From a bacterium (lineage in GTDB: Bacteria > UBA8248), in NCBI GenBank assembly GCA_965207065.1, contig OZ242260.1, positions 704,001-768,000 on the forward strand: a stretch of DNA of 64,000 nt. Reading direction: 5' to 3'. The notes beneath the pieces were generated by a model. The model searched no databases, had not been told where the DNA came from, and saw only the letters and a list, made by a program, of their open reading frames with translations. Position 1 is the stretch's first letter, and each line of letters starts with the position of its first letter. Made by a program: the position numbers and the translations under genes. Shown here in pieces: positions 9,290-56,566 of the stretch.

Positions 9290-10750
9290 TCAATCCGGGG
9301 TCAGCGCCTCCCTGCCAAAGCGCTCAATCGTCTCGAGCGTCTCGCGCACGTCGTCCCATGTCGTGGTGTGGTTGATGATGCAGAACCTGAGCGCGAACTT
9401 CCCCTTGAGAAGGGTGGATGAGACGAACGCCTTGTCGTCCCAGAAGATGCGGGCGAGCATCGTCTTGTTGATCTCCTCAAGCGCCTTATCGTCTAGTCCT
9501 GAGTCCGCCGGATTGACCCGGAAGCACACGACACCCAGCGAGACGGGCGTCAGCATCTCCAGAACCGGGCTCTCGCGGACGTACGCCTCCGCACGTTCGG
9601 CCAGTTCCATGCCCTTCGAGACGGCCTGCCGGAACGCGGCCATGCCGAAGGTCTGCACCGACATCCAGACCTTCAAGGCCCGGAAGGAACGGCTGAGCTG
9701 CAGGCCGCGATCGGAGAAGTTCGGGTGATTCGCGCCCCATATCGTGTCCTGTAAAATATCGTGCCGCACCGCAAACGCATTTTCGAGCGTAGTAACATCC
9801 TTCACGAGCAGGGCGCCCGCCTCGTAGGGCTGAAAGAACCATTTGTGCGCGTCCATTCCGATTGAATCGGCGCGCTCCATGCCCTTCAGGAGATTCTTGC
9901 CCTGCTCGGTGACGGCCGCGAAACCGCCGTAGGCGGCGTCGACGTGCAGCCAGATGCCCTGCGCATCGCAGAAGTCCGCCATCTCCCCGAGCGGGTCGAT
10001 AGCCCCCGTGCTCACCGCTCCGGCGTTGGCGCACACCGCGATAGGATGGAGCCCCGCCGCGCGATCCTCATTCACGGCGCGGGCGAGCGACTCCATATCC
10101 AGGCGGAAGTCTCCATCGCTCGGAAGAAGCCGTATCCGCTCGGGCTTGACGCCGATAATCCGCGCCGCGCGGATATGGGCGCTGTGGCTCTGGTCGCTCA
10201 TGTACACGCTCGCGCGATCGGGATGACCCGACGCTTCGCGCGCCGCGACGAAGGCGTCCAGGCTCGCCGCCGAACCCCCGCTCGTGAAAAGTCCGCCCGC
10301 GCTTTCGGGATAGCCGACCCAGCGCCGGAACCAGTCGATGACGACGAGTTCGAGCTGGCTCGGGCCGCTCGCGACCAGCCAGGTGCATTGGTTGATGGTG
10401 TAGCCTGCGGCCATGAAGTCGGCCAACACGCCGGGCCAGGTGGGTGAGGTCGAAACGAACGCAAGGGAACGGGGATGGTCCAGGCGCAACGAAAACGGGA
10501 GAATATCGCGCGCGGCGCGCTCCAAAACCTCCGACGCCGGACGGGCGGCCTCGGGCGGAGCCTCCATGAGCTGTTTTTCGAGTTCCTGCTGGAAATCCCC
10601 GTCCCACGCGCCTTGCTCGGCCAGATTCCCGCTTCGCTCCACGAGAATTTCCGCCGCCCTGCGCGCCAGATCGAGCATCTCTTCGGGCGCCATCCTGAGG
10701 CCGTCGCTCTCCCCAGCCTGCGCTTCTCTTCTTCCCTCCGAATTATCCAT
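9290..10750 (-). CDS. group II PLP-dependent decarboxylase (aromatic-L-amino-acid decarboxylase-like), copy 1
   Basis: HPR, TSGGS, SDQSHS, GAIDPL, WLHVDAAYGG, DAHKW (PLP lysine) and QLSRSFRALKVW motifs. GGAG RBS favours ATG 10750 over the track start at 10882. Confidence 0.9.
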   Translation of the reverse strand: MDNSEGRREAQAGESDGLRMAPEEMLDLARRAAEILVERSGNLAEQGAWDGDFQQELEKQLMEAPPEAARPASEVLERAARDILPFSLRLDHPRSLAFVSTSPTWPGVLADFMAAGYTINQCTWLVASGPSQLELVVIDWFRRWVGYPESAGGLFTSGGSAASLDAFVAAREASGHPDRASVYMSDQSHSAHIRAARIIGVKPERIRLLPSDGDFRLDMESLARAVNEDRAAGLHPIAVCANAGAVSTGAIDPLGEMADFCDAQGIWLHVDAAYGGFAAVTEQGKNLLKGMERADSIGMDAHKWFFQPYEAGALLVKDVTTLENAFAVRHDILQDTIWGANHPNFSDRGLQLSRSFRALKVWMSVQTFGMAAFRQAVSKGMELAERAEAYVRESPVLEMLTPVSLGVVCFRVNPADSGLDDKALEEINKTMLARIFWDDKAFVSSTLLKGKFALRFCIINHTTTWDDVRETLETIERFGREALTPD

Positions 10751-11119
10751 TACGCATCTCCCATCGTATTGTGACATCGGAATAGAACATGGGGTGGTGC
10801 CAAAGAGACTGTTGCGGAGCCTTGCTCCCAGCGTCCCGTCCCACCCGAGCAGCCGGTCTTGCGTAACGGATATTCCCGTCACTTCATGTGTCGCATGCCG
10901 TCAATCTTCATTGATACGAATGAGGTTGTCAAAGAGAAAGGGCAAGCAGACCCCAGCCGACGGATGCCGGGAGGGCGTATCAGGAAAACGCAGCCAGGCA
11001 ATGGATACACATTACACAGATAGCGAACGATATTCGTTTCCTTTCAGCCCCATTTCTGGTGACTTGACCGGCAAATATCCAGCCGCTACAGGAATCGGGA
11101 AACGCAGGGAAGCGACCTC

Positions 11120-12583
11120 CTAACCATTTTCCTGCGCCAAAGCCTCTCCCCCGAACCGCTCAATCGTCTCAAGCGTCTCGCGCACGTCGTCCCATGTCGT
11201 GTTGTGGTTGATGATGCAGAACCTGAGCGCGAATCTCCCTTTGAGAAGCGTGGATGAGACGAACGCCTTATCGTCCCAGAAGATGCGGGCGAGAACCGTT
11301 TTGTTGATCTCCCCCAGCGCTTCCTCGTCGAGGTCCGCTTCCGCCGGACTCACCCGGAAGCAAACAATCCCCAGCGACACGGGCGTCAGCATCTCCAGAA
11401 CCGGGCTCTCGCGAACGTACTCCTCGGCTTGTGCGGCCAGTTCCATGCCCTTGGAGACGGCCCGCCGGAACGCGGCCATGCCGAAGGTCTGCACCGACAT
11501 CCAGACCTTGAGCGCCCGGAACGAGCGGCTCAGCTGCAGACCGCGATCCGAGAAATTCGGGTGGTTCGCGCCCCATATCGTGTCCTGGAGAATGTCGTGC
11601 CGCACCGCGAAGGCGCGCTCGAGTGTTGCCACGTCCTTCACGAGCAGGGCGCCCGCCTCGTAGGGCTGGAAGAACCATTTGTGCGCGTCCATCCCGATCG
11701 AATCGGCGCGCTCCATTCCTGCGAGGAGTTCCCTGCCCCGCTCCGTGACGGCCGCGAAGCCGCCATAAGCGGCGTCGACGTGCAGCCAGATTCCGTGCGC
11801 CTCGCAGAAATCCGCCATCTCCCCGAGCGGGTCGATCGCCCCCGTGCTGGAGGCTCCGGCGTTGGCGCACACCGCGATGGGATGGAGGCCCGCGGCGCGA
11901 TCTTCCGCCACGGCGCGCGTGAGCGCCTCCATGTCCAGGCGGAAGCGTTCATCGCTCGGGAGCAGCCGGATGCGTTCGGGCCGTATACCGATGATCCTTG
12001 CCGCGCGGACGTGCGCGCTGTGGCTCTGATCGGCCATGTAAACGCTCGCGCGATCGGGATGACCCGCCGCTTCGCGCGCCGCGACGAAGGCGTCCACGCT
12101 GGCAGCCGAACCACCGCTCGTGAAAAGCCCGCCCGCGCCCTCGGGGTAACCGATCCAGCGACGGAACCAGTCGATGACGACCAGTTCGAGCTGGCTCGGG
12201 CCGCTCGCGACAAGCCAGGTGCATTGATTGACGTGGAAGCCCGAAGCCATGAAGTCGGCCAGCACCCCGGGCCAGGTGGGCGAGGAGGGGATGAAGCCGA
12301 AGAAGCGGGGATGATCGTTACGCCCCGTGAGGGGGAGTATCTCGCGCGCGGCGCGCTCTAAAACCTCCAGCGCCGGGCGGCCTTCCTCGGGCGGAGTCGC
12401 CATCAGTTGCTTTTCGAGTTCCTGCTGAAAATCTCCGTCCCAGGCGCCCTCTTCGGGGAGCCTCTCGATGCGCTCCACCAATAGTTCCGACGCCCTGCGC
12501 GCAAGCTCAAGCATCGTCTCGGGCGTCATATGGAGGTTATCGCTCCCCAGGTCCGAAGCGGCTCTTCTCTCAGAATCTGCCAT
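11120..12583 (-). CDS. group II PLP-dependent decarboxylase (aromatic-L-amino-acid decarboxylase-like), copy 2
   Basis: Same motifs as copy 1, with long stretches identical. Confidence 0.9.
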   Translation of the reverse strand: MADSERRAASDLGSDNLHMTPETMLELARRASELLVERIERLPEEGAWDGDFQQELEKQLMATPPEEGRPALEVLERAAREILPLTGRNDHPRFFGFIPSSPTWPGVLADFMASGFHVNQCTWLVASGPSQLELVVIDWFRRWIGYPEGAGGLFTSGGSAASVDAFVAAREAAGHPDRASVYMADQSHSAHVRAARIIGIRPERIRLLPSDERFRLDMEALTRAVAEDRAAGLHPIAVCANAGASSTGAIDPLGEMADFCEAHGIWLHVDAAYGGFAAVTERGRELLAGMERADSIGMDAHKWFFQPYEAGALLVKDVATLERAFAVRHDILQDTIWGANHPNFSDRGLQLSRSFRALKVWMSVQTFGMAAFRRAVSKGMELAAQAEEYVRESPVLEMLTPVSLGIVCFRVSPAEADLDEEALGEINKTVLARIFWDDKAFVSSTLLKGRFALRFCIINHNTTWDDVRETLETIERFGGEALAQENG

Positions 12584-13068
12584 TACACCTCACCTGCCAT
12601 CCAGTAAACAACTATTCACCAAAGCGACTACCAAGGCTCTATCGCAGATTACCCCACAACTGCGCTCCCTCTCGCACGCAGTCGGGCGCGGAGCAAGCGA
12701 ACCTCCTGGATATTTTCAGTGTCGCACTCCAAAACTATGATGGACTCACTTCGCTCAGTCAAGATAATTTGAGGGATTTTCGCACTTGCGGAGTCGTCAG
12801 AAGCACCCGACGCAGGGTGCCCCAAACAATGTTGACCAAGAATGATGCCGCTAGTTGCCAAACACGAAGAAATTTTATAAGGTATTGAGCGCATTTCTCA
12901 GAGAAGTAGTCCTGAATGACTACGCCCTCTGTTCGAAAATTTGAGGGTGGGGTTGTGTTGATGCGGGATGAGGTATTACGCTAGGCATATTATACTTGTT
13001 GCCAAGGCATACACCCTCGGGGTATCAGATCAATACAAATCTCACGCTGTTGGGAGGCAGAGCCAAGC

Positions 13069-13407
13069 ATGGAAATCAAGACTGAGCAGGAAAACGGGAC
13101 CTTGGTCGTGCAGGTAGATGGCCGCATCGACGGAGCCACTGCCCCGGAATTCGAGAGCACCATAAAGAACATTATCAGCGAAGACGACCACGCCGTCATT
13201 GTAAATTTCGAGGGGGTCTCGTATATCAGCAGCGCCGGCCTCCGCGCCGTTCTTCTCGTCGCCAAGCAGCTAAGCCAAAGCAACACGAAGTTCGCCCTGT
13301 ACGCGCTCGGAGAACTGACGCGCGAAGTTTTCGAGATATCCGGTTTCGACCGCATTATTCAAATACACGCATCGAAAGCGGACGCGCTTGCAGCGACCGC
13401 GAACTGA
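13069..13407 (+). CDS. STAS-domain anti-sigma factor antagonist (RsbV/SpoIIAA-like)
   Basis: GRIDG, VSYISSAGLR (phosphorylatable Ser) and EVFEISGF motifs; GGGAGG RBS. Confidence 0.92.
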   Translation: MEIKTEQENGTLVVQVDGRIDGATAPEFESTIKNIISEDDHAVIVNFEGVSYISSAGLRAVLLVAKQLSQSNTKFALYALGELTREVFEISGFDRIIQIHASKADALAATAN

Positions 13408-13548
13408 CAACCGAAAGACAAGAAACAGGGAACGAAAAACGCTTTCTCGGGCGTCTCGCCTGATGGATTCGCGCGCCGCGCTTCTTGTCGCGGCCTTCGC
13501 AATCCTACATATCCCTTGAAATCTTTCAGGTTCGGAAGTTGGAACGGA

Positions 13549-15738
13549 TTACCGGGGTAAGTCGATTATCATCTCCGTGTATTCGTCCGGTTCGGTTTCG
13601 ACCCGTATGTGTCCCCCATGCTGACGAATAATGTCGCTGGAGAGCGATAGGCCAAGCCCGGTGCCCTTGTCCGTCGGCTTGGTCGTGAAGAAGGGGTTGA
13701 ATATCTTCTCGGCGACTTCGGGCGGCATACCACTCCCGTTGTCGCGAATGCGTACCTCGATGCCATCCGGCCTGCACTTGGTGGCGACCCTGAGGGTGGG
13801 ATCGTAGCGCGGCGCATCTTCGGCCGAGGAGGCGGAGAGTTTTTGTCGCTTCTCGTCGGTGGCGTAGCAGGCGTTGCTCACCATGTTCAAGAAGACGCGG
13901 CCCAAATCCTGCGGAATGGCATCGAACTCCACCATATCCGGGTCCAAATCCCAATCGAGCGTGATGTTGAAATTCGGATCGGCCGCCCGTGCGCTGTGGT
14001 AGGCGAGACGCGCGTGTTCCTCGATCAGGGTATTGATGTTGGTCGGCTGCGCATCGCCCGAACCCCTGCCCATCTGGAGCATGCTCTCCACGATATTGTT
14101 GGCCCGCTCCCCATGCTCGCGGATGCGCTGGAGGTTGCCGGTGAGGTCTTCGCCGATTTCGGTGATGACCTCGATCGGATCTTCCTCGTCCTGTTTTTTC
14201 TCTTCCTTCTCCGGTTCTTGTCCGTTCTCCTGTCCGTTGCCGCCGTGAGTCTCCACCTTTCCCAGCTCTTCCATCAATTCTTCCATCAACTCCTCGGAGA
14301 CTTCCGAGAAGTTCTTGATGAAGTTCAGCGGATTTCTGATCTCGTGGGCGACGCCCGCCGTCAGTTCACCGAGCGCCGCGAGTTTCTCGCGCATGACGAT
14401 CTGATCCTGCGCTTTCTCCAGATCGCCGAGCGCGCTTTCGAGTTCTTCGTTCTTGCCCTTGATTTCCTCGGCCAGTTTTTCCACCAGGTTCAGACGCTGC
14501 ACCTCCAGGGCGTGGCGACGGAAGATCTCGAGCGCCGCGGCCATTTCCGCGACTTCGTCCTGTCCGCCGATATCGACTTTCTCCTCCAGATCGCCATCGG
14601 CCATCCGGCGCATGCGGTCCGAAAGCTGCCCGAGCCGACGCGAAAGTACGCGGCCGATGAACAGCCAGCCGATCAGCACGGCGCCGATGAAACTGATGGC
14701 GCTCAGCGCGAGCAGGATGTTGCTGCCGGTGCTGATGGCCTGGGCGGAATCCTGGGTGGCCTGTTTTGCGCTCTTGCGGGCCGTGCTCACCAGCGTTTCG
14801 GTGGCGGCCAGAATTTTCGCTTCCAGGGATTCGTGAAAAGAGAGCAACTCACCCTGTTTCCTCTCGAGCGCCAGTTCGCCCGCCCGCAGGTTGAACCCTC
14901 CCTCCTCGCCGTTACTCAGCTCGATCATCTGCTCGAAAAGAGGCTCGAGGGCAGCGCGCACCGGAACGTTCCCGAGCGCGCCCAGGCGCCGCCTGATGCC
15001 GCGCACCGTGGCCTCGAAACGCTCGCGCAGCGGCTCGAGCAGGGCGGCGTCCGATACGCTGAAGGCGGTGGCGAGAAGCTGCGCCGCGATGGTGGCGTCC
15101 GACCTCAGACCGGCGATGTAGCGGTAGAGGTTGATTCCCTCTTCCGAGAAGTGTTGCTCGCGCGGGACGGACGGCTTGTCGATTTTGCTGAAGCCCGTCA
15201 TGGCGAAGAACAGCTGATCGTCGATGGCGGGAACCATGACGTTGCTCAATTCCTTGCGCACCCACGTGAGCTGGAGCTGCAGCGTATCGTGCGAATCGGT
15301 GAGGTCGAAGCGCTGCAGCACCAATCGTTTGATGGCGGTGAGGTTTTCGATGAGCACGTCGCCGAGTTTCTTGATGCGCAGGGAGATTTCCTGATTGCCT
15401 CCCTGGCGTATCAGCGCCGCCAGCGCTTTCTCGAACGCCTCCTGGTCCTTGGCGACCTCGGTGGCTATCTGCTCCAGATTATCGGGATTCACCACAGCGG
15501 CCAGGCGAGGCGCCGCGGCCACCAGGGCGCTGCTGTGCTGAGCGGTTCCAAAGGCGCTCGCCAGGAATGGAACGGTGCCCTCGTTCACGCGATTCTGCAC
15601 CCCTCCCACGAATGCGAACGAGACCCATGCGACCACGCTCGCGATGACGGTGAGAGAGGCGGCGGCGCCGATGCTGAGGTAGAGCTGCGTCGATATCTGG
15701 TAACGCTTGTCCAGAAGGATTTTCAGCGCGCTTTTCAT
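13549..15738 (-). CDS. membrane sensor histidine kinase (helical TorS-like periplasmic domain, HAMP, HisKA, HATPase)
   Basis: Two TM segments, HAMP (MADGDL...DEVAEM), H-box VAHEIRNP, N-box LNMVSNA, DNGSG, FNPFFTTK and GTGLGL. ATG 15738 overlaps the stop of the upstream gene (ATGA). Confidence 0.9.
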   Translation of the reverse strand: MKSALKILLDKRYQISTQLYLSIGAAASLTVIASVVAWVSFAFVGGVQNRVNEGTVPFLASAFGTAQHSSALVAAAPRLAAVVNPDNLEQIATEVAKDQEAFEKALAALIRQGGNQEISLRIKKLGDVLIENLTAIKRLVLQRFDLTDSHDTLQLQLTWVRKELSNVMVPAIDDQLFFAMTGFSKIDKPSVPREQHFSEEGINLYRYIAGLRSDATIAAQLLATAFSVSDAALLEPLRERFEATVRGIRRRLGALGNVPVRAALEPLFEQMIELSNGEEGGFNLRAGELALERKQGELLSFHESLEAKILAATETLVSTARKSAKQATQDSAQAISTGSNILLALSAISFIGAVLIGWLFIGRVLSRRLGQLSDRMRRMADGDLEEKVDIGGQDEVAEMAAALEIFRRHALEVQRLNLVEKLAEEIKGKNEELESALGDLEKAQDQIVMREKLAALGELTAGVAHEIRNPLNFIKNFSEVSEELMEELMEELGKVETHGGNGQENGQEPEKEEKKQDEEDPIEVITEIGEDLTGNLQRIREHGERANNIVESMLQMGRGSGDAQPTNINTLIEEHARLAYHSARAADPNFNITLDWDLDPDMVEFDAIPQDLGRVFLNMVSNACYATDEKRQKLSASSAEDAPRYDPTLRVATKCRPDGIEVRIRDNGSGMPPEVAEKIFNPFFTTKPTDKGTGLGLSLSSDIIRQHGGHIRVETEPDEYTEMIIDLPR

Positions 15739-16922
15739 CGCTTCTCCGGCCGCAGGATTTTTTCGGTCGAAACGTAGCGGCCGCCCTCTCCGATGACGGT
15801 GAGGAAAACGGCGTCCGAACCCTGGTTGTCGTCTTTGCCGTAGCGGAGCTTGAATCCACCGAGGTCGATGGTGGCCGCGCGGTTCAGACCCTCGAGAAGA
15901 CAGGCGCGATCGGGCTCGCGTCCACACAGTTCGAGGGCGCGGATGGTCAGTCTGCCGGCCATGTAGCCCTCCAGGGAGACGAAGCTGGGAACCGCTCCGG
16001 GCTTGTGAACCTCCAGATCCCGCCGGTAGTCCGCCGCGACCTTGAGATTCTTCGTCGTCGGGAACGGAACAACCTGAGTGACGTAGATGCCGACGCCGGC
16101 GGGGCCGAGTTCATGTACGAGCGCATTGCTGCCCACGAAGGAGAGCGTCACGAAAATCGGATTGAACCCCGTGTGGCGAGCCCAGGCGATAAAGGAAGCA
16201 ACGGGTTTATAGGCTCCCACGAGGACCACGGCCCCGGGGTTTGCGCGTCTGATGTCGAGCAGGGCCGTTTTGACCGCCGTCGTATTCCGTGGATAGACTC
16301 CGGTGACCGCAGGCTTCAGATTGCGCCGCTCGAGTGCGCGGCGAACGCCCCGGTAGCCCGCCAAGCCGAAAGAATCGTCCTGGTAGAGCACGGCGATCTT
16401 CTTGACGCCCAAGTCCTTGATCAGCCGATTCACCATCTCCTCGGTCTCCTGGAAGTAGGAGGCGCGCAGGTTGATGATGTTTTTCCATTTGGGATTGCGC
16501 AAGAAGGCGGCGCCGGTGAAGGGCGCGATATAGGGGACGCCCGCTTTTGCGGCGACCGGAGTGGCCGAGCGCGAGGTGGGCGTGCCGACGGCCCCGATGA
16601 GCGCGAAGACCTTGCTCTGTTCTATCAACCGGCGGGTATTCAGGATGGCGGCTTCGGGTTCATACGCATCGTCGAGGGAAGTGAGTTCGAGCCGGCGTCC
16701 GAAAACGCCGCCGCGCACGTTCGACGCGCGAAAGGCGGCTTCGATGCCGAGGCGCATTTCCTCGCCCAGAGCCCTCGCGGGTCCGGTGAAGGCGGCGGAC
16801 TGGCCGAAGAGAATCCGGTGGGGGGAAACCCCGGGCACGGCCGCTTGCGCTCCCGACACCGAGCAGATTATCGCTGCAGCAAGGAGGATAAGCGTCCGGC
16901 GGATTCTGAGCGAGAGGCTCAT
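15735..16922 (-). CDS. periplasmic substrate-binding protein (LivJ/Peripla_BP_6-like), orphan
   Basis: Signal peptide; GQSAAFTGP, LDDAYEP, GAVGTPT, RASY, YQDDSFG and SLEGY motifs. No permease or ATPase gene in the operon. Confidence 0.88.
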   Translation of the reverse strand: MSLSLRIRRTLILLAAAIICSVSGAQAAVPGVSPHRILFGQSAAFTGPARALGEEMRLGIEAAFRASNVRGGVFGRRLELTSLDDAYEPEAAILNTRRLIEQSKVFALIGAVGTPTSRSATPVAAKAGVPYIAPFTGAAFLRNPKWKNIINLRASYFQETEEMVNRLIKDLGVKKIAVLYQDDSFGLAGYRGVRRALERRNLKPAVTGVYPRNTTAVKTALLDIRRANPGAVVLVGAYKPVASFIAWARHTGFNPIFVTLSFVGSNALVHELGPAGVGIYVTQVVPFPTTKNLKVAADYRRDLEVHKPGAVPSFVSLEGYMAGRLTIRALELCGREPDRACLLEGLNRAATIDLGGFKLRYGKDDNQGSDAVFLTVIGEGGRYVSTEKILRPEKR

Positions 16923-17341
16923 TCACTCCTCCGCTTGACAAGGCGCATGTGGTTCTTGTTCTCCTCCCGTCGATAAGTCACTTCGTCCATCATCGTTCGC
17001 ACCAGATGGATGCCGAGCCCGCCCACGGCACGGTCCTCGATAGTCGATTCCGTGTCCGGGTCGGGGGCGTCGGTCAGGGGATCGAACGGACGGCCGCTGT
17101 CAATAATATCGATGACCACCGACTCCGCGTCCGAGAAGAGTTCAATCTTGATTTCACCTTCTTCTCCTTCGCTGCTGCCGTGGTGAACGACGTTGAGCAC
17201 CAGTTCTTCGAGCACGAGGTCGACCTGGAATTCGATGTCGGGCGGCCAATCCTGCTCGCGGCTGAATTCCCCGATGGCGGATTGAATGCGCGGGAGATCG
17301 GCGGCTTCGAACCCCATGGTCAATGAAAGTTTCGCGCTCAT
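16919..17341 (-). CDS. anti-sigma factor Ser/Thr kinase (RsbW/SpoIIAB-like)
   Basis: EELVLNVVHHG (N-box), IDSGRPFDP and GGLGIHLV motifs. Confidence 0.92.
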   Translation of the reverse strand: MSAKLSLTMGFEAADLPRIQSAIGEFSREQDWPPDIEFQVDLVLEELVLNVVHHGSSEGEEGEIKIELFSDAESVVIDIIDSGRPFDPLTDAPDPDTESTIEDRAVGGLGIHLVRTMMDEVTYRREENKNHMRLVKRRSE

Positions 17342-18552
17342 TCGCTCCCCCCGCGGCGGTAAAGGGTCAGACAGGTGATGTCATCGAACTGGGGCGCCCT
17401 GCCTGCGAATTCCTTCACCGCGTCGAAAATCTTGTCGTTGATCTCCTTGGCGGAGGACGGCGACGCGCCTCCGAGAATCCCCAGAAGGCGATCAAGGCCG
17501 AATTGTTCGGTCTTCACGTTCTCGGCCTCCGTCACGCCGTCGGTATAGAGAATGAGGGCTTCGCCGGGCGCGAGAGTCGCATTGTACATGTCGTAGCTGA
17601 ATTCCGGCGCGATCCCCAGAGCTACTCCCGGTTGCTGGGCAAGCAGGCTCGATGAGCCGTCGGCGTGAATGATGACCGGGGGGTTGTGGCCGCCGTTGGC
17701 ATACACCATTTCTCCGGTCTTGGATTCGAAAAAAGCGAAGAAGACGGTGACGAACATCGCGGCCTCGTTGTTTTCCTGAAGCAGCCGGTTCACTTCGCTG
17801 AGCACGTCGCCGGGCCGGAGTAGACGATTCACCTCGCCGAGCACCTCGCCCGGATTCGCGCGCGCGACGGCGACGCTGTTGAGCAGCGTGCGGCTCGACA
17901 TCATGAAGAGCGCGGCGGGCACGCCCTTGCCCGAAACGTCGGCGACCGTGATGCCGATGCGGTCGCCGCCGAGGTTGATCACGTCGAAGAAATCGCCCCC
18001 CACATCCCGGGCCGGCACCATGCCAGCGTAGATTTCGTAGTCGGGGCTCTCGGGAAACTTGGTCGGCAGGATCGACTGCTGCATCTTGCTGGCCAGGTCG
18101 AGGTCACTTCTGAGAGCGACCAGCTTGTCGCGCGCCTCAAGGGCTTCGCGCAGCATGGCGAGGTGTTCGAGGGTCCGATCGATGGTGATACGCAAATCCT
18201 CGAAATCGATCGGCTTGGTGACGAAATCAAACGCGCCCCTGTTCATCGCCGTGCGGATATTCTTCATGTCCCCATACGCCGAAACGACCACGGAACGCAC
18301 GTTGGGGTCGACCGAGGGGATTTGCTTGAGCAGCGTCAGGCCGTCCATCTCCGGCATGTTGATGTCGGTGAGCACCATGTCAATAGGATCGCCGCCGTTC
18401 TCGTTCAAGCGTTCGAGCGCCTCGACTCCGTTGCGCGCGAATACGAACGAATAGCGGCCCCGCCGAATCTCGCGCCGCATGCGCTGCAGCACGAGTTGTT
18501 CGAGATCGGGCTCATCGTCCACCACGAGTATCCTGTGGGGCTCTTCCATCAC
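17338..18552 (-). CDS. response regulator fused to SpoIIE/PP2C phosphatase (RsbU/RsbY-like)
   Basis: REC domain (VVDDE, TDINMP, KP), then VGGDFFD, ADVSGKG, NGGH, YTDGVTEA and DDIT. Confidence 0.93.
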   Translation of the reverse strand: MMEEPHRILVVDDEPDLEQLVLQRMRREIRRGRYSFVFARNGVEALERLNENGGDPIDMVLTDINMPEMDGLTLLKQIPSVDPNVRSVVVSAYGDMKNIRTAMNRGAFDFVTKPIDFEDLRITIDRTLEHLAMLREALEARDKLVALRSDLDLASKMQQSILPTKFPESPDYEIYAGMVPARDVGGDFFDVINLGGDRIGITVADVSGKGVPAALFMMSSRTLLNSVAVARANPGEVLGEVNRLLRPGDVLSEVNRLLQENNEAAMFVTVFFAFFESKTGEMVYANGGHNPPVIIHADGSSSLLAQQPGVALGIAPEFSYDMYNATLAPGEALILYTDGVTEAENVKTEQFGLDRLLGILGGASPSSAKEINDKIFDAVKEFAGRAPQFDDITCLTLYRRGGSE

Positions 18553-18989
18553 GACCTCCCTTCCGTCAACATCTTGTCGCGCGCCTCGAACGCCTCTCGT
18601 ATCTCCCCGAGATGCTTCATCGACTTGTCGATGGTATTCCGCAGGTCCTCAAAATCAATCGGCTTGTTGAGGAAATCGAATGCGCCCCTGTTCATAGCCG
18701 TGCGGATGTTTTTCATGTCTCCATATGCGGAGACGATGACGCAGCGCAGCTTGGGGTCATATGCCGGAATTTGCTCGAGCAAAGTGAGGCCGTCCATCTC
18801 CGGCATGTTGATGTCGGTGATGACGATGTCGATTCCATTGTCTCCGCTCAGGCATTCGAGCGCTTCGACCCCGTTGCGCGCGTATACGAACGAATAGCGA
18901 CCGCTGCGAATCTCGCGCCGCATTCGCTGATTCACGAGGTCTTCGAGGTCCGGTTCATCATCCACCACGAGTATCCGGCAGGTTTCCAT
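18549..18989 (-). CDS. stand-alone response regulator receiver protein
   Basis: VVDDE, TDINMP and KP motifs; near-duplicate of the N-terminus of the next gene. GAGGAG upstream of ATG 18989. Confidence 0.88.
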   Translation of the reverse strand: METCRILVVDDEPDLEDLVNQRMRREIRSGRYSFVYARNGVEALECLSGDNGIDIVITDINMPEMDGLTLLEQIPAYDPKLRCVIVSAYGDMKNIRTAMNRGAFDFLNKPIDFEDLRNTIDKSMKHLGEIREAFEARDKMLTEGRS

Positions 18990-19403
18990 TTTCCTGACTA
19001 TCTCCTCATTGCCCCTGCTGCGCTCGCCCAGCGGATCCGACAAATACGAATCCCAGCTAAATGTATAAAAGACTTACCCTTCGCGCAACTCATTTTTTAA
19101 CTTCACCCATGCAATCCGAGGAGCGGAGCAGCGGTTTGCAACCCTCTGAAGCCCAGGCTCCTACTGCGCACGACCACGGCTCGACACCACTGCTCCAGCG
19201 GATTTCATCCATCATGAATCCTCTCCCGCGAGCAACTCGGCCTCGCGAGCCCGTTAGCAGACCCTGGGCCGAACGGGGATAAGACCTCGAATATTTCATC
19301 TGCCGCCTGCTTGTCCCGACCCTGGTGTTTGCGTATCTTGAGGCGCGACCCATCGAGTGGTCCTGAAGCCGCCGACCACCGCAACATCGAGAAAGGTTCC
19401 TCC

Positions 19404-19991
19404 TTGTCCAGAAAAGCCAAGAGAAAAAAGCAACGTCCCCGACCCGCCGAGCACGGCTCTTCGCGCCAGGCGAGAGCCAGAGGCTCCAGGAACAAGCGTA
19501 CGGCCCCGCTCGTGTGGGCGATCGTCATCGTCGCGGTCGTCATCGGCGTCTACTACTTTACAGGCGCATCCGCGAACAAAGCGCGCAACGTGCCCTCCCT
19601 CGGCAACCGCCACATCCGCGTCGGCACGAGCGGCGCCATCTCCTATAACACGGAGCCTCCTACCTCGGGTCCCCATTACCCGACCATCGTCCGCTGGGGC
19701 GTTCACCGGAGCCCGATCGACAAGGGCTTCCAGGTGCACAACCTGGAAGACGGCGGCGTTCTCGTGCAGTATAACTGTTCCGATTGTCCCGAACTCGTGA
19801 AAAAACTCGGAAATCTGGTGCGAGACTACCCGAAGTTCGTCATTCTCGCCCCGTATCCCTCCATGAAGCACAGAATCGCGCTCACCGCCTGGGGCAAGAT
19901 AGACACGCTGGAGGCTTTTGACGAAAAGCGCATCACCGCCTTCATCGACGCCTATCGCGGCCTTGACCACCACCCGAGGGGGAGGCGATAG
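19404..19991 (+). CDS. DUF3105-domain membrane-anchored protein
   Basis: YNTEPPTSGPHY, VHNLEDGGVLVQYNC and IALTAWG motifs; one TM after a basic N-terminus. Start TTG 19404 is inferred. Confidence 0.8.
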   Translation: MSRKAKRKKQRPRPAEHGSSRQARARGSRNKRTAPLVWAIVIVAVVIGVYYFTGASANKARNVPSLGNRHIRVGTSGAISYNTEPPTSGPHYPTIVRWGVHRSPIDKGFQVHNLEDGGVLVQYNCSDCPELVKKLGNLVRDYPKFVILAPYPSMKHRIALTAWGKIDTLEAFDEKRITAFIDAYRGLDHHPRGRR

Positions 19992-20070
19992 GGGTTCTCA
20001 AGAACGGTGGACGGTAATACCCCGCGCGCGATGCGACGGGACAATACCGAAGCGCGCCCGCACGGGCTTC

Positions 20071-21816
20071 TCAACTCCCTGTGACCCTTCCCGTCCCGGG
20101 GACCTCCACTCGAACGGTCACGATGTCCGTGTCGTGATATTGCTGGTGGCGGACCGACGATGCGAGGTGGCGCAGCAGCCTGAGCGAGACTTCGCGCTCG
20201 ATGGGCGCGCCTGCCGTCTGCTCGCCGAGCAGCGCGATTTTATCCTGCAGGTTCTCCTCCCCGCCCGCGGCGACGAACTCCATCACTGCGCCGCCGTCTT
20301 CCTTATGCGCCACCACGAGCAGCCGCCTTCGCTCGCGGTCCTCATCTGCTTCATCCTGACGCAGAATCGTCAGCAGCGTCTCCTCGCCCACGGCGTCGAG
20401 GCGTTGCGCCATCGCCTCATCCCAGCCGCCGGCGGAGGCGAAATCACCGAGAAAATCCCGTATCTTCGGAAGCGCCGAGATGTCGAACGCCACCTCGATA
20501 CGGCTGCGCCGCGGCTCGGTGAGTTCGACGAACAAGGTCATGATCATGGCGACGAGTCCGCCGGCCGTCATTCCGTTGTTCAGAAGGCCGCCAGCGAACC
20601 CCGTGAAATAATCCGGGAAGATCACGCCGTTCTGGAAGCCGACGCCCGCCCAGAACGCGACGCCCGCCACCAGCCCCTTGCGGTAGTCGATCCCGTCCTG
20701 AACGACCATCCGCATGCCGACAATGAAGAGCATCGCCAGCAACACGGTGATGTAGGCAGCGGCGACCGGGGCCGGTATCGCCAGCACCAGGGCGACCAGC
20801 TTGGGCAAAAACGCCAGGGAGAGAAACACCAGCCCGGCGGCGATTCCCACGCTGCGCGCGCCGACGCCGGTGAGTTCGGTGACGGACACGCTCGTCGAAT
20901 AGGTCGTGTTCGGCACCGTCGCCAACAGACCGGAGAGCAGGTTGCCCACACCGTCGGCCGCCACCGCGCCCTGCACCGCCTTGAAATCCACCGCCCGGGG
21001 CCGCCGCCAGGACACGCGCTGGATAGCGGCGCCGTCGCCCACGGTTTCGATGGCGCCGATTAAGGTCACGAACACGAACCCGGGAAGAAGCGTCCAGAAA
21101 ACCGGCCCGAAGCTCAGGTCCAGGCCCGGCCACGCGCCTTGGGGAAGACCGACCCACGAAGCCCCGGCGACGCGGGCCGTATCGTAGATGCCGAAATAAC
21201 CGCCGATTATCGAGCCCGTAACCACACCGATCACCGGCGCCCACAGGCGCAGCGCCCCCGTCGCCTTGAGCGCGATGCCGACGATGACGGTCACCGCCGC
21301 CAGCGCGCTCAGCGGAGCGGCGAGCGGCGAGCTGCCCTTCGGCACGTCATCGAGCATGTTGAAGACGATGGGCATCACCGTCACCGCTATCAGCATGATG
21401 ACGGTTCCCGCGACGGTCGGCGTCAGCACACGCCGGAACAGCGAGAGCCTTTCTGAGAGCACGAACTGAAACAGCGAGGAGGCGAGAACCAGCGTGGCGA
21501 GCATCCCCGGTCCTCCCTTGGCGAGCGCCGCGATGCAGACCGCGATGAAAGCGCCCGAGGTGCCCATGATGAGCACGTAGCCCGCGCCGAAGCGGCCGAC
21601 CCTGTACGCCTGGAGCATCGTGGTCGCGCCGCAGACCGCCAGGCCGGCGAACACGGCCCACGAGAGATAATCCTCCGTTCCGCCGGCGGCCCGCACCACG
21701 ATCAACGGCGTGAACACAATGCCGCCCACGCAGAGGATGGCGAGCTGCATCCCCAGACCGAACGAGAGCAGGGGCGGCGGTTTTTCGTCGGCTTCGTAGC
21801 GGACGTCGGTGTTCAT
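20071..21816 (-). CDS. NCS2 (uracil/xanthine) permease fused to a C-terminal degenerate HATPase/RsbW-like domain
   Basis: MQLA...TP, TMLQ, MGTSGAF, TPTVAGTVIMLIA, IETVGD, ADGVGN and PNTTYS (NCS2 signature region), then ~150 soluble residues that align by eye with the 16919-17341 protein. Confidence 0.85.
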   Translation of the reverse strand: MNTDVRYEADEKPPPLLSFGLGMQLAILCVGGIVFTPLIVVRAAGGTEDYLSWAVFAGLAVCGATTMLQAYRVGRFGAGYVLIMGTSGAFIAVCIAALAKGGPGMLATLVLASSLFQFVLSERLSLFRRVLTPTVAGTVIMLIAVTVMPIVFNMLDDVPKGSSPLAAPLSALAAVTVIVGIALKATGALRLWAPVIGVVTGSIIGGYFGIYDTARVAGASWVGLPQGAWPGLDLSFGPVFWTLLPGFVFVTLIGAIETVGDGAAIQRVSWRRPRAVDFKAVQGAVAADGVGNLLSGLLATVPNTTYSTSVSVTELTGVGARSVGIAAGLVFLSLAFLPKLVALVLAIPAPVAAAYITVLLAMLFIVGMRMVVQDGIDYRKGLVAGVAFWAGVGFQNGVIFPDYFTGFAGGLLNNGMTAGGLVAMIMTLFVELTEPRRSRIEVAFDISALPKIRDFLGDFASAGGWDEAMAQRLDAVGEETLLTILRQDEADEDRERRRLLVVAHKEDGGAVMEFVAAGGEENLQDKIALLGEQTAGAPIEREVSLRLLRHLASSVRHQQYHDTDIVTVRVEVPGTGRVTGS

Positions 21817-22092
21817 GTGCTGATCGGAACCCTTGGCGCTCAATGTCGTATCCTTCCCGGCCGGCAAGCGGGTCTGCGGTGGAGCGGAAACCCATGCTCG
21901 ATATGCTTCGTAGCGGATAGCCAAGTTTCTCACACCACTTCCGGCCCCTCAAGAAAAAAACCCTGCGAAGGATACCGACGGGCAAAATAGCTCATCCGGC
22001 GCGATGTCAGGGATGAATTCGGGGTTGGGGGGGAGCTTGAGGGGAAAAATAGCATAATTTATGTTTTTTTCCGGCGAAAGGTTATATTTTTA

Positions 22093-22120
22093 TTGACGAG
22101 GCGATCACGGCGCATATACT
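22093..22120 (+). promoter_or_regulatory. sigma70-type promoter TTGACG-N16-TATACT upstream of the NHLP precursor
   Basis: Near-consensus -35 and -10 boxes, preceded by an AT-rich UP-like tract (22081-22092). Confidence 0.65.
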
Positions 22121-22262
22121 TTCCTTAAGTTGTTATTTTTTTCCGGAGCGAAGAGGCGGAATATCACCGCTCTCAGACGCTTGCTGCCGCATGGCCCCCC
22201 GGCCATGGGAGGAATCTCACACCACCCGCAATCGGGCGGCATTTTGTGGAGAACGCGAAGCA

Positions 22263-22550
22263 GTGAAAACCATCGAGGAAGTAAGAGAGGGTATCATCCG
22301 AAAAGCCAGCGAGAACGAGGCGTTCCGCTCCGAATTGCTTACCGACCCCAAGGCCGCCATCGAGAAGGAACTGGGGGTCACCATTCCCGAGGGATTCAAG
22401 ATCGGCGTGCACCAGGACAACCTCATGAGCATCAACCTGGTGTTGCCGCCTGCCGAATTGAGCGAGGCGGACCTCAACGCCGTCGTGGCCGGCTCGGGGT
22501 CCATGCTGGACCTTGCCAGCGCCTGGAACAGCTTGAACCAGAACTCCTGA
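22263..22550 (+). CDS. NHLP-leader (nitrile-hydratase-like) RiPP precursor peptide, 95 aa
   Basis: IIRKASENEAFRSELLTDPKAAIEKELGVTIP...VH....LVLPP..ELSEADLNAVVAG matches the NHLP leader pattern. Predicted core SGSMLDLASAWNSLNQNS. GGAG RBS before GTG 22263. Confidence 0.9.
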   Translation: MKTIEEVREGIIRKASENEAFRSELLTDPKAAIEKELGVTIPEGFKIGVHQDNLMSINLVLPPAELSEADLNAVVAGSGSMLDLASAWNSLNQNS

Positions 22551-29720: not shown

Positions 29721-30644
29721 CTATTTCTTTTTGCTTTTTCCCTTTGTTGGTGTTTTGGCAGGCTGCGACTTGCTGATCTGCATGAATACCTTGCCGTCTT
29801 TCAATACAGTAACACTTCCTGTCGATTCACTGATAGCGAACGATATGGCTGTGCTTACTTCCGTTATACCCGCTCCGGCCATGTGACGCGAACCCAGCCC
29901 CGGGGGCAAATCATTCTCAGGCGCCGCGTTCAGGTGCCTGCCGGCGGCTTCGATGATTCCGTCTCCCCGAATGACGAACGCGCCGTCGATAGCGCTGAAT
30001 TCCTTGACGGTCTCGCGCAGGGCCGGGTCCATGATGTTTCTTTGCTCTTCCGGGTATCCATGGAAGGGATTGATGACGAGTTGGCGTGAATACTGCAGCA
30101 CGAGATCATGATCCCCCAGAACAAAAAGCGCGCCGCGAGGTTTTCCTTCCCGCCCTTCGGCGCCGAGTTCGAGAGCGAGCGACAAGACCGTTTCGAACAC
30201 CTTCGGGTCTACGCCCTCAACGGCGCTTTGCGTTTCCGATGTTTGGAGCATTTCTTTCTCGCGATCCAAATGAAAGACCATGAGCGTGTCAATTTCTTCG
30301 TTCTCAGGCAAGCCTGAAAGGCAAACCACGGTGTCGTTTTGCGTGATGGAGCCTTCACTCAAAGCGATCACGACACCCATCTTGATGATGTCGATTCGAT
30401 TCAGGGACAAGGCGGGCAATTGCATTACCTTGCAACCCCGTTTTTCCAGTTCTTCGTAAAGGTCGGGGGTGGAAGTGGTGGTGAAATGCTCTACGCCGTC
30501 GGGCAGATCCATCAAGGCGTCCAGATCCTTCATCGCGTCCGCATGAATAAAAATGGCCTTGGCTTCGAGTTCATTGCAGATTTGTGAAGCCGCGGCGATG
30601 ATGCTTTCGCTGAGGCCGGCTTGTTTTTCGGCCGTTTCTCTCAC
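29721..30644 (-). CDS. diadenylate cyclase (DisA_N domain, DacZ-like architecture)
   Basis: EGREGKPRGALFVLGD, IDGAFVI (DGA), GLGSRHMAG and AISESTG motifs; soluble N-terminal domain and no TM segment. Confidence 0.85.
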   Translation of the reverse strand: MRETAEKQAGLSESIIAAASQICNELEAKAIFIHADAMKDLDALMDLPDGVEHFTTTSTPDLYEELEKRGCKVMQLPALSLNRIDIIKMGVVIALSEGSITQNDTVVCLSGLPENEEIDTLMVFHLDREKEMLQTSETQSAVEGVDPKVFETVLSLALELGAEGREGKPRGALFVLGDHDLVLQYSRQLVINPFHGYPEEQRNIMDPALRETVKEFSAIDGAFVIRGDGIIEAAGRHLNAAPENDLPPGLGSRHMAGAGITEVSTAISFAISESTGSVTVLKDGKVFMQISKSQPAKTPTKGKSKKK

Positions 30645-54386: not shown

Positions 54387-55484
54387 ATGACCACCCTCAG
54401 CTTCGCGAACATTCTCGTTCTTAGTTATAATTCCCTCTCCTACGCCGCAATTTTGTTCCTACTGGCGAGCGGGCTCTCGCTCATCTTCGGCGTGATGCGC
54501 ATCGTGAACCTCGCGCACGCCGCTTTTTTCCTCTTCGCCGGCTATCTCGCCCTGGAATTCTATAACATCATTTTCGGCTCCCTGAGCCTGATGCCGAGAA
54601 TCATCCAGCTCGTTTCGTGGGCCCTGCTCTATTTCGCATGGCGGGGACTCACGCTATACATCGCTCCCAAACACGCAGCGCTGGCGCTGCTCCTCGCATA
54701 CATCGTAATGGAAGTTTTGTGCAGCCTGATATGGAGCTTCAGATTCTTCGAACTCTTCTTCCCGCACGTGCCCGTCAAACCGGTCGACAGGATCAATTTT
54801 CCGGGGATGATGGCCGCCATCGTCGTCGCGCTCACCATCGCGGCGCTGTGCGGGATGTTCATCGAGCGTTTTTTCCTGCGCCTTCTCGGACAGGACACGC
54901 TCGCGCAGGTGCTGGTGACCATCGGCTTCGCATTCATCTTACAAGACGGCTCGCTCTACACCTGGGGCGGTGACAACTTCATGCTCAAACAACCCTGGCC
55001 GCTCAACTTCAGCGCCGTCGTCGGGGGCCTGTCGCTGCCCCAGTACCGCGGTTTCATGATCGTCATCGCCGTCCTGGTGGCCGCCGCCCTGTTCCTGGGG
55101 ATAGAGCGCACCCGCCTCGGCGCCATCATGCGCGCGGCGGTGGACGACCCCGAGATGGCGCGCGGCATCGGCATCAACACCAACGTCGTGCAAATGTCAA
55201 TATTCGCCATCGGGGCGCTGCTCGCCGCCACGGGCGGCGTGGTGGGCGGCGCGTTCTTCGGCGTCTACCCGGGTCTCGACTTCGAGATACTTCCCTACGC
55301 GTTCGCCGTGGTGATCATCGGGGGACTCGGCAGCCTGGGCGGCGCCGTCCTCGGCAGCATTGTCGTCGGCTTCATCGAGAATTTCGGGACCGCGCTGTTT
55401 CCCGAACTCTCCTATTTCGCACTCTTCGCGCCCATGGCCATCATTCTGGCGATCAAGCCGACCGGGCTGTTCGGAAAGGGTTAA
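54387..55484 (+). CDS. branched-chain amino acid-type ABC permease (LivH-like)
   Basis: GLSLIFGVMRIVNLAH, RTRLG..MRA and VIIGGLGS motifs. Confidence 0.9.
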   Translation: MTTLSFANILVLSYNSLSYAAILFLLASGLSLIFGVMRIVNLAHAAFFLFAGYLALEFYNIIFGSLSLMPRIIQLVSWALLYFAWRGLTLYIAPKHAALALLLAYIVMEVLCSLIWSFRFFELFFPHVPVKPVDRINFPGMMAAIVVALTIAALCGMFIERFFLRLLGQDTLAQVLVTIGFAFILQDGSLYTWGGDNFMLKQPWPLNFSAVVGGLSLPQYRGFMIVIAVLVAAALFLGIERTRLGAIMRAAVDDPEMARGIGINTNVVQMSIFAIGALLAATGGVVGGAFFGVYPGLDFEILPYAFAVVIIGGLGSLGGAVLGSIVVGFIENFGTALFPELSYFALFAPMAIILAIKPTGLFGKG

Positions 55485-56513: not shown

Positions 56514-56566
56514 GGACGGCGCGGCACCGCGTCTCTGATTCGAGACGAAATGAGGGAGGAAAACAG

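Follow-up and report, generated by a model that had tools for sequence, protein, structure and literature searches.

A partner-switching cassette with its own binding protein and sensor kinase, and a neighboring NCS2 permease with a degenerate RsbW-like tail as its candidate target

What does a partner switch act on when no sigma factor accompanies it? Modules of this type are widespread outside the Firmicutes, where an output has been assigned to only a minority of them, and the locus described here provides a testable candidate for one large family of them. It lies in a stretch of 64,000 nucleotides from a bacterium of the lineage UBA8248 (contig OZ242260.1 of assembly GCA_965207065.1, positions 704,001 to 768,000 of the forward strand), referred to below as the window. 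A STAS gene and an operon for a histidine kinase, a periplasmic binding protein, an RsbW-like serine kinase, a receiver (REC)-linked PP2C phosphatase and a stand-alone REC protein, here called the cassette, are found close to a gene for an NCS2 permease whose cytoplasmic C-terminal tail is predicted to fold like RsbW itself. We propose that the cassette is a partner-switching pathway that is fed by a binding protein and whose output is non-transcriptional, namely, a nitrogen-nutrient sensor that would act on the permease, and we give this proposal about an even chance of being right. The argument draws on the following features.

13069-13407 (+): STAS protein, single domain, anti-sigma antagonist type, 112 aa (PF01740, 73.9 bits; TIGR00377, 79.1 bits)
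13549-15738 (-): membrane histidine kinase, 729 aa (HAMP, HisKA and HATPase_c by Pfam)
15735-16922 (-): periplasmic binding protein, Peripla_BP_6, 395 aa (PF13458, 191 bits)
16919-17341 (-): RsbW/SpoIIAB-like serine kinase, HATPase_c_2, 140 aa (PF13581, 97.9 bits)
17338-18552 (-): REC plus SpoIIE/PP2C phosphatase (REC-PP2C), 404 aa (PF00072, 85.6 bits; PF07228, 180.2 bits)
18549-18989 (-): stand-alone REC, 146 aa (PF00072)
19311-19991 (+): DUF3105 membrane protein, between the permease gene and the operon (PF11303, 94.4 bits)
20071-21933 (-): NCS2 permease, longest open reading frame (ORF), with Xan_ur_permease on residues 60-432 only
20530-21816 (-): transmembrane body of the permease, divergent NCS2 family (PF00860, 146.2 bits)
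20071-20529 (-): C-terminal cytoplasmic domain of the permease, approximately 150 aa, predicted RsbW/SpoIIAB-like fold (hhalign, AF2, Foldseek and VIA-align)

The permease tail and the switch beside it

The database gene call for the permease gives a protein of 581 aa (P0001) that starts at position 21816, in which the tail takes up residues ~436-581; the longest ORF extends to 21933. The PF00860 score is above the cut-off, and the scores for the NCBIfam subfamily models are below theirs (TIGR03173, pbuX, 191 versus 414; TIGR00801, ncs2, 167 versus 292). On the tail, Pfam yielded no match at an E value of 0.01 or lower and only two unrelated weak matches at an E value of up to 1. The tail family nevertheless comprises 3003 proteins at an E value of 0.001 or lower, most of them of about 585 aa, and when it was compared by hhalign with the family of the cassette's RsbW-like protein, an alignment was obtained with an E value of 8.8e-5 and a probability of 59.9 over 119 columns, which is approximately the whole RsbW domain. 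An AF2 model of the tail, built from 9 sequences (pLDDT 76.7), has a strand-helix-helix-strand-strand topology. Each of the best 17 Foldseek matches to this model is an anti-sigma serine kinase, whether UsfX, RsbW, SpoIIAB or the Rv1364c RsbW domain, with an E value of 5.6e-7 for 8ih8_C, and a VIA-align comparison with 48,161 chains gave Z scores of 13.7 for UsfX, 13.4 for the RsbW domain of Rv1364c, 13.1 for RsbW and 12.3 for SpoIIAB. SiaB reached a Z score of 10.5, and ordinary histidine-kinase ATPase domains did not exceed 6.6. By its modeled fold, the permease tail belongs with the RsbW/SpoIIAB anti-sigma kinases.

Within this domain, the N-box Asn has given way to Thr, Ser or Ile in each of the 25 sequences, the Asp of the G1 box to an invariant Ala, and the GGLG of the G2 box to a 3-residue gap plus Ser; a flanking Trp and a Glu-Glu pair are retained. 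Because the N, G1 and G2 ATP-binding motifs have all been lost, we regard the tail as a pseudokinase, that is, as a dead anti-sigma-kinase domain. We propose that the STAS protein or RsbW would dock on it, a suggestion for and against which the odds seem to us to be balanced. A dead RsbW-like tail of this kind is also present on another NCS2 permease of the genome (G000:C1:1338032-1339762; L138:7032-8762). Its gene comes just after those for a type I polyketide synthase, a phosphopantetheinyl transferase and a hydrolase, and a Rieske oxygenase gene is also found there, a setting that is uninformative on the substrate.

The first-pass annotation, which was made from the DNA alone, had described five minus-strand genes that overlap at their stop and start codons and converge on a STAS gene, and this description holds. 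Reading of the sequence at the junctions REC/REC-PP2C/RsbW/binding protein/kinase revealed four 4-nt overlaps (GTGA, ATGA, ATGA and ATGA), and the STAS and kinase genes are convergent and 141 bp apart. Since the junction with the binding-protein gene is a 4-nt overlap, the kinase start was set at the ATG at position 15738, giving 729 aa, and not at an upstream GTG. The coupling of the binding-protein gene to the kinase gene, likewise proposed earlier, is borne out by this ATGA overlap and by the retention of the pair in 74 of the 80 related loci described below; as the same gene order recurs in these 74 loci, the operon arrangement is not due to chance. The binding protein had further been noted to be without a permease or ATPase of its own, and indeed, among the window's ORFs searched with Pfam, no ABC permease or ATPase gene adjoins its gene. 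A Liv-type ABC permease gene (54387-55484, +) is located approximately 37 kb from it. Beside this distant gene, a 693-aa protein is encoded (55739-57820, +) in which Peripla_BP_6 is confined to residues 303-638 and the first 300 residues match no Pfam family.

The suggestion that REC-PP2C, together with RsbW, sets the phosphorylation of the STAS protein is compatible with the sequences, in which the catalytic and acceptor residues are all retained. The PF01740 and TIGR00377 scores of the STAS protein exceed the model cut-offs. Its putative phospho-acceptor, Ser55 in the motif YISSAGLR, aligns with the Ser after the Asp of SpoIIAA (1auz) and with the Ser of RsfB (8ih8), which we take to be the phospho-acceptor residues of those proteins, and S55, G57, L58 and R59 do not vary among 18 members of the family. 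The N, G1 and G2 boxes of the RsbW-like protein are intact, with E46, N50, D81 and G107-G108-L109-G110 invariant in 20 family members; it is the sole strong HATPase_c_2 match of such size in the genome, the three other matches being weak and located within frames of 755-803 aa. The REC-PP2C protein is the only SpoIIE-family phosphatase in the genome, with a single genome match. Its phosphatase domain keeps the GGDF, DVSGKG, TDGV and DDIT motifs, presumably the metal-binding motifs of PP2C phosphatases, and its receiver keeps DDE12, TD64INMP and KPI. An RsbU/RsbW/RsbV-type module is thus recognizable by the STAS serine, the GHKL kinase boxes and the PP2C motifs, and no cognate SigB/SigF-type sigma factor was found in the searches of the window and of the genome. 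In the translation of the PP2C domain, a short imperfect tandem duplication (PGEVLGEVNRLLR / PGDVLSEVNRLLQ) can be seen at residues ~233-258.

The stand-alone REC protein is 75.4% identical over 142 aa, and its gene 77.5% identical over 413 nt, to the receiver of REC-PP2C. It is present in loci L008-L015 and L018 and absent from the other loci, as well as from genomes G022 and G034 of the same genus. By sequence comparison, it is a local duplication restricted to the window's sub-lineage; in the simplest reading, it may serve as a phosphate sink or competitor.

The kinase consists of a first transmembrane segment, a periplasmic domain of approximately 290 aa (14719-15606), a second transmembrane segment, HAMP, HisKA (H465), and HATPase_c. 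Its hydrophobic segments span residues 18-49 and 337-366, it retains the H, N, G1, F and G2 motifs, and Pfam detected no REC or HPt domain in it. The earlier label "TorS-like" is well founded as far as models go. Although the Pfam TorS_sensor_domain (PF21689) scored 22.1 bits, under the cut-off of 27, the N-terminal region of the NCBIfam model TIGR02956 (TorS) matches residues 15-436 with 164.9 bits, and an AF2 model of the periplasmic domain (pLDDT 91.6; alignment of 23 sequences) had TorS sensor domains, including TorS-TorT complexes, as its top six Foldseek matches (TMt up to 0.83). The match to 3o1i_B has a TMq of 0.75, a TMt of 0.82 and an rmsd of 3.9 over 279 columns, and sequence identities to the TorS matches are 12-16%. 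As modeled, the periplasmic sensor has the TorS fold. The binding protein is of the LivJ/amide/urea-binding class (best solved relative, 4kv7; E value, 1.2e-63), and its N-terminus, read by eye, resembles a signal peptide. Since the kinase is without REC and HPt domains and the binding protein is of another family, we consider the pair to be similar to TorT/TorS and not a member of that group.

Distribution of the cassette and of the permease fusion

A REC-PP2C search of species-representative genomes gave at least 570 relatives among 601 candidate stretches, and the best 80 of these (60-92% identity) were compared as related loci. They are labeled Latescibacterota, Alpha- and Gammaproteobacteria, Chloroflexota, Acidobacteriota, Gemmatimonadota, Binatia, Opitutales, Acidimicrobiales and Nitrospinota, with several recorded plainly as "bacterium," or about ten phylum labels in all. 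The synteny check that had been suggested for homologous operons gave a clear result: in 74 of the 80 loci, the REC-PP2C gene is followed by those for RsbW, the binding protein and the kinase, in this order, with a median gap of about -1 nt between the binding-protein and kinase genes, and one of the six incomplete loci (L025) is cut by a contig edge. The STAS gene is found upstream on the same strand in 49 loci, downstream and convergent in 28, and in neither position in 3. The cassette is a conserved unit across these labels. Three Acidobacteriota-labeled loci (L056, L058 and L071) contain STAS, REC-PP2C and RsbW and are devoid of the binding protein and kinase; in them, the switch core is followed by two squalene/phytoene-synthase genes and by genes for an amine oxidase, an MMPL transporter and a LolA-like protein.

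In a quick tree of the REC-PP2C proteins, phylum labels are clustered without forming single clades, the branches between phyla are short, and the Latescibacterota label requires at least 5 changes on well-supported branches. Judged by these sequences, the tree fits a lateral spread of the cassette. As the labels are those of the submitters and the tree is a quick one, we claim neither a donor nor a direction.

The permease with its RsbW-like tail, here called the fusion, tracks the cassette in several groups. In the window's phylum (51 genomes), every one of the 23 genomes of the genus, and one genome outside it, has the orthologous cassette, and the fusion is present in 20 of the 23 and in one other outsider, so that 20 of 24 genomes with the cassette have the fusion versus 1 of 27 without it. 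In all 20 fusion-bearing genomes of the genus, the fusion gene is within ~3.5 kb of the REC-PP2C gene. The DUF3105 and REC genes intervene between the two in the window. In genomes G022 and G034, the permease gene is directly upstream of the cassette and co-directional with it, with a gap of ~120-130 bp and no extra receiver, and because this order differs from that of the window, the adjacency of fusion and cassette must have survived rearrangements. Under the Latescibacterota label, the fusion was found inside the cassette region (L027), a few genes from it (L029) or at a distance of 5 kb (L077). Among 151 sampled Latescibacterota genomes, both elements occur in 59, the fusion alone in 1, the cassette alone in 5 and neither in 86, which corresponds to the fusion in 59 of 64 cassette genomes versus 1 of 87 others; in 14 of the 64, it lies on the same contig, ~5-14 kb from the cassette. 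The same counts were made for a class of Chloroflexota (98 genomes: both, 69; fusion alone, 2; cassette alone, 1; neither, 26), in which the fusion is found in 69 of 70 genomes with the cassette versus 2 of 28 without. At least one fusion is also encoded in 35 of 50 cassette genomes drawn from other related loci. The first-pass annotation had guessed that the adjacent NCS2 fusion, and not transcription, could be the target of the switch; through the predicted RsbW-like tail, its position and its co-occurrence with the cassette, this guess has gained a basis, with the contact itself being putative.

A number of observations weigh against the permease as the output. The fusion is absent from 3 of the 23 genomes of the genus (G024, G028 and G033) and from 15 of the 50 cassette genomes of other related loci, and for this reason, it cannot be the universal output. 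Of 44 metagenome loci that contain the fusion, many of them on short contigs, only two carry the cassette, and both belong to the window's own lineage. The co-occurrence figures are raw counts that include no control family and that are confounded by shared descent and habitat. In this regard, DNA runs labeled "sponge metagenome" contain 72-77% of the sampled words of the stretch, and fusion and cassette may both be mere markers of one habitat. As for the tail itself, its hhalign probability is only 59.9, the domain is invisible to Pfam, and it is without the ATP-lid segment, which is possibly relevant to STAS binding. A complex prediction of the tail with the STAS protein scored 0.04 and 0.17 against a mark of 0.32 and counts neither way. 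Finally, a 324-aa RpoS/RpoH-like sigma factor encoded elsewhere in the genome is a possible target of RsbW, and the commonest neighbor of the cassette in other loci is an ammonium transporter (Amt) and not an NCS2 permease; both points are taken up below.

What the switch may control

In the mechanism that we propose, the LivJ-class binding protein would capture a small, probably nitrogen-containing nutrient in the periplasm and dock on the TorS-like periplasmic domain of the kinase. The kinase would then pass phosphate to the receiver of the PP2C phosphatase, with the duplicated stand-alone receiver draining or competing for it, and the phosphate on Ser55 of the STAS protein would be removed by the phosphatase and added by the RsbW-like kinase. 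Dephosphorylated STAS would dock on the dead RsbW-like tail of the NCS2 permease and thereby change uptake, with no sigma factor involved. RsbW and SpoIIAB act as dimers, and we therefore also propose a variant in which RsbW, released by STAS, would heterodimerize with the permease tail. We consider the input half, from the binding protein through the TorS-like kinase and REC-PP2C to phosphorylated STAS and RsbW, to be probable by analogy, because it follows the established behavior of its protein families. Our confidence in the tail as the output of the switch is divided evenly between yes and no. Our data bear on gene order and gene overlaps, domain identities, motifs kept or lost, folds, conservation, co-location and co-occurrence; all protein contacts, the direction of each regulatory step, the ligand and the transported substrate are what we infer.

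The nature of the signal is suggested by the cassette's neighbors in other genomes. When 1625 ORFs from the 80 loci were clustered without bias and cluster representatives were searched with Pfam, Amt was the sixth commonest family. An amt gene is located no more than 300 bp from the cassette in 26 of the 80 loci, within 2.5 kb in 42 and anywhere in the locus in 46, and those near the cassette span seven phylum labels. Their arrangement varies: amt may precede a STAS gene that is convergent to the operon, lie directly 3' of the kinase gene, lie (together with a PII gene) immediately 5' of the STAS gene, or form part of an ATP-grasp/alpha-E/transglutaminase set. A PII gene is found within ~230 bp of the cassette in 7 of the 80 loci, and GlnE is encoded directly upstream of it in 6 alphaproteobacterial loci. 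Because Amt, PII and GlnE neighbor the cassette elsewhere, its signal most likely has to do with nitrogen supply. None of the 10 loci in the window's own clade has an amt gene near the cassette, and in 7 of them an NCS2 permease adjoins it; the three amt genes of the window's genome are all located away from the window. Extra domains on cassette-linked Amt proteins were considered and rejected, as the long ORFs are over-extended at the N-terminus and end in short acidic tails of the ordinary kind. Where amt is part of the known ATP-grasp/alpha-E/transglutaminase set (L073:15383-19282, similar Chloroflexota loci, L023, L024 and L035), it is downstream of the cassette and inserted between the circularly permuted ATP-grasp and alpha-E genes.

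These neighbors lend themselves to another explanation, in which the cassette would control nitrogen assimilation through Amt, PII/GlnK or GlnE, the NCS2 adjacency would be incidental in this genus, and the permease tail would serve another purpose, such as dimerization or the binding of a second STAS protein (C1:4129586-4129954). We regard this as unlikely, although the frequency of Amt close to the cassette, under seven phylum labels and in at least three gene orders, speaks in its favor, as do the neighboring PII and GlnE genes, the size of the fusion family, whose 3003 members are mostly found away from the cassette, and the presence of both a second STAS protein and a second fusion in the genome. 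It is at odds with the location of the genome's three amt genes, none of which is near the window, with the C-termini of cassette-linked Amt proteins, which are ordinary and short and carry no added domain, and with an adjacency of fusion and cassette that has outlasted rearrangements in the genus and is seen again in another phylum. This explanation and a permease output are not mutually exclusive. It is conceivable that nutrient transporters are plugged or uncoupled, in the manner of PII, by a STAS protein under phosphorylation control, which, once dephosphorylated in response to the binding protein, would act on the NCS2 tail here and on Amt elsewhere, and that the switch was re-purposed without a sigma factor for the post-translational control of nitrogen uptake and spread laterally among unrelated bacteria in one habitat; we offer this broader idea tentatively and think it doubtful. 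A different view of the input would make the binding protein an ordinary part of an ABC importer whose permease and ATPase are encoded elsewhere, with the kinase sensing something else. Peripla_BP_6 proteins are mostly ABC-transport components and the Liv-type permease gene is 37 kb off in the window; set against this, the genes for the binding protein and the kinase touch or overlap in the 74 conserved loci, ABC components are missing from the conserved neighbors of the cassette, and the kinase sensor is predicted to fold like TorS, its best matches being solved TorS-TorT complexes. TorS works through a binding protein, and we hold the importer explanation to be very improbable indeed.

There is also the canonical scheme, in which RsbW would sequester in trans a sigma factor encoded elsewhere, most likely the 324-aa protein mentioned above, and the permease would be a mere neighbor. 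The earlier statement that the window encodes no sigma factor or DNA-binding regulator agrees with our Pfam search, which detected no sigma or helix-turn-helix family in 54 ORFs that do not overlap one another and measure 90 aa or more, shorter ORFs being outside the scan; re-scanning of 19 stretches of the window, mostly unassigned ORFs, at an E value of up to 1 yielded no usable family, and several ORFs match no Pfam family. The search for a SigB- or SigF-type factor was extended to the genome (4.48 Mb, one contig, 96% complete), which contains four sigma-70-family genes, namely, those for RpoD, the 324-aa RpoS/RpoH-like (group-2-like) factor, one ECF factor and one SigJ-like factor. No SigB/F/G-type factor was found among them: the best SigBFG score in the genome is 131 bits versus a cut-off of 234, the same score that RpoD itself yields. 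The gene for the 324-aa factor (G000:C1:3873411-3874385) is surrounded by envelope and lipid housekeeping genes (LysM-SLT, BamD-like, CDP-alcohol phosphatidyltransferase and PlsY), and when the 80 loci were searched with the genome's own four sigma factors as the only queries, a sigma gene was found within 10 kb of the cassette in a single locus (L023), where it encodes an ECF factor 5.5 kb away. A trans-acting sigma factor would also leave the dead RsbW-like domain on the adjacent permease unexplained. Its merits are that RsbW is an intact kinase of the anti-sigma family, that the genome does have one non-primary full-length sigma factor, and that REC-PP2C/STAS systems acting on RpoS are described for Pseudomonas aeruginosa (PMC6482189). 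On balance, the canonical scheme appears to us to be quite improbable, and a direct action on the permease remains our preferred reading.

Known systems and neighboring genes

In the RsbK-RsbY-RsbV-RsbW-SigB system of Bacillus cereus, a sensor kinase phosphorylates a REC-PP2C protein, which sets the phosphorylation of a STAS protein against RsbW. The chain of sensor kinase, REC-PP2C, STAS and RsbW is the same in our locus, which differs from that system in that no sigB gene is present in the locus or the genome, the kinase is non-hybrid, with a periplasmic sensor of the TorS-like type and a binding protein of its own, a duplicated receiver has been added, and the organism is a diderm (a BamD-like gene is present). 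With TorT-TorS, the trimethylamine N-oxide (TMAO) sensor pair of E. coli and Vibrio parahaemolyticus (3o1h, 3o1i, 3o1j, 3i9w and 3i9y), the locus shares a binding protein encoded beside a membrane kinase and a kinase periplasmic domain that forms a long helical bundle, the predicted sensor matching TorS best. Here, however, the binding protein is of the Peripla_BP_6 and not of the TorT type, the kinase is without the REC and HPt domains of TorS, and the output is a phosphatase instead of a DNA-binding regulator.

Partner switches with outputs other than a sigma factor include HptB-HsbR-HsbA, SypE-SypA, SiaABCD and HenR-All4160. In these systems, the phosphorylation state of a STAS or STAS-like protein is reported to be governed by RsbW-like kinases and by PP2C phosphatases linked to a REC or HAMP domain, and the target of this protein is not a SigB/F factor. 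For HenR-All4160 of Anabaena, a direct action of the switch on an enzyme that carries the STAS domain is described (PMC13555669), which provides a precedent for direct action on a non-sigma protein. SiaB of SiaABCD is also a structural neighbor of the permease tail, as indicated by the Z score given above. The targets in these systems are a diguanylate cyclase, FlgM/RpoS, a biofilm factor and a glycosyltransferase, whereas our candidate target is a transporter to which a dead version of the kinase partner, and not a STAS domain, is fused, and the input here is a binding protein and a TorS-like kinase.

A transporter that carries one half of a STAS/anti-sigma pair at its C-terminus is itself familiar from the SLC26/SulP anion transporters, which have a STAS domain at the cytoplasmic C-terminus (PMC8256260). 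Judging from sequence, the polarity is reversed in the NCS2 permease, which has the RsbW-like partner while the STAS protein is free and phosphorylatable, so that a permease with a dead anti-sigma-kinase copy is the mirror image of SulP/SLC26. The passages of the review that were consulted mention no transporter with an anti-sigma-like domain. Likewise, within the coverage of our full-text literature search, which did not extend to subscription papers, we found no description of an NCS2 permease with an anti-sigma-like domain, of the cassette or of its link to ammonium transporters; the permease tail with an RsbW/SpoIIAB-like domain is new here. If STAS or RsbW binds the tail, this would define a new way to gate nutrient uptake, assign a function to a domain of >3000 database proteins and explain a five-gene cassette of hundreds of uncultured species in about ten phyla, which may switch uptake directly rather than genes. 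The amt, glnK and glnE genes that accompany the cassette in other phyla point to a nitrogen-sensing route beside the PII system.

A scan of positions 12600-22300 revealed 7 promoter-like sites versus a shuffle mean of 2.2, with none of them at the upstream ends of the operon, and terminator-like sites at chance level (9 versus 8.2). Short contigs (~150-460 nt, 0-10 differences) from four sequencing runs, three of which are recorded as RNA libraries and one of which is guessed to be RNA, cover parts of the STAS, kinase, binding-protein, RsbW, REC-PP2C, REC, DUF3105 and permease genes. We do not count these contigs as proof of transcription or of an operon, since DNA may be present in the libraries and neither level nor strand is shown. 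The DUF3105 gene appears to be a neighbor typical of the genus; it is found near the cassette in loci L008-L016, L132-L134 and L136, but its position varies.

The STAS proteins of the genome comprise two single-domain proteins and three SulP-STAS transporters. The second single-domain STAS protein is 35% identical to that of the window, and its gene is directly followed by one for a GPP34/GOLPH3-family protein (PF05719; G000:C1:4129586-4130619, L005:7001-8034). A GPP34 gene is also found within ~310 bp of the cassette in L027, L029 and L054, and in L027 and L029 it is directly upstream of the STAS gene. This STAS-GPP34 pairing may represent a second output or an accessory of the same switch.

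Elsewhere in the window, a diadenylate cyclase with a DacZ_P-type sensor domain (PF02457 and PF21755) is encoded at 29721-30644 (-). Just past the STAS gene, two tandem paralogous genes (9290-12583, -) encode group II PLP-dependent decarboxylases of 530 and 487 aa; the pair is kept beside the cassette in the close relatives L009, L010 and L012, and a single copy is found in L013 and L015.

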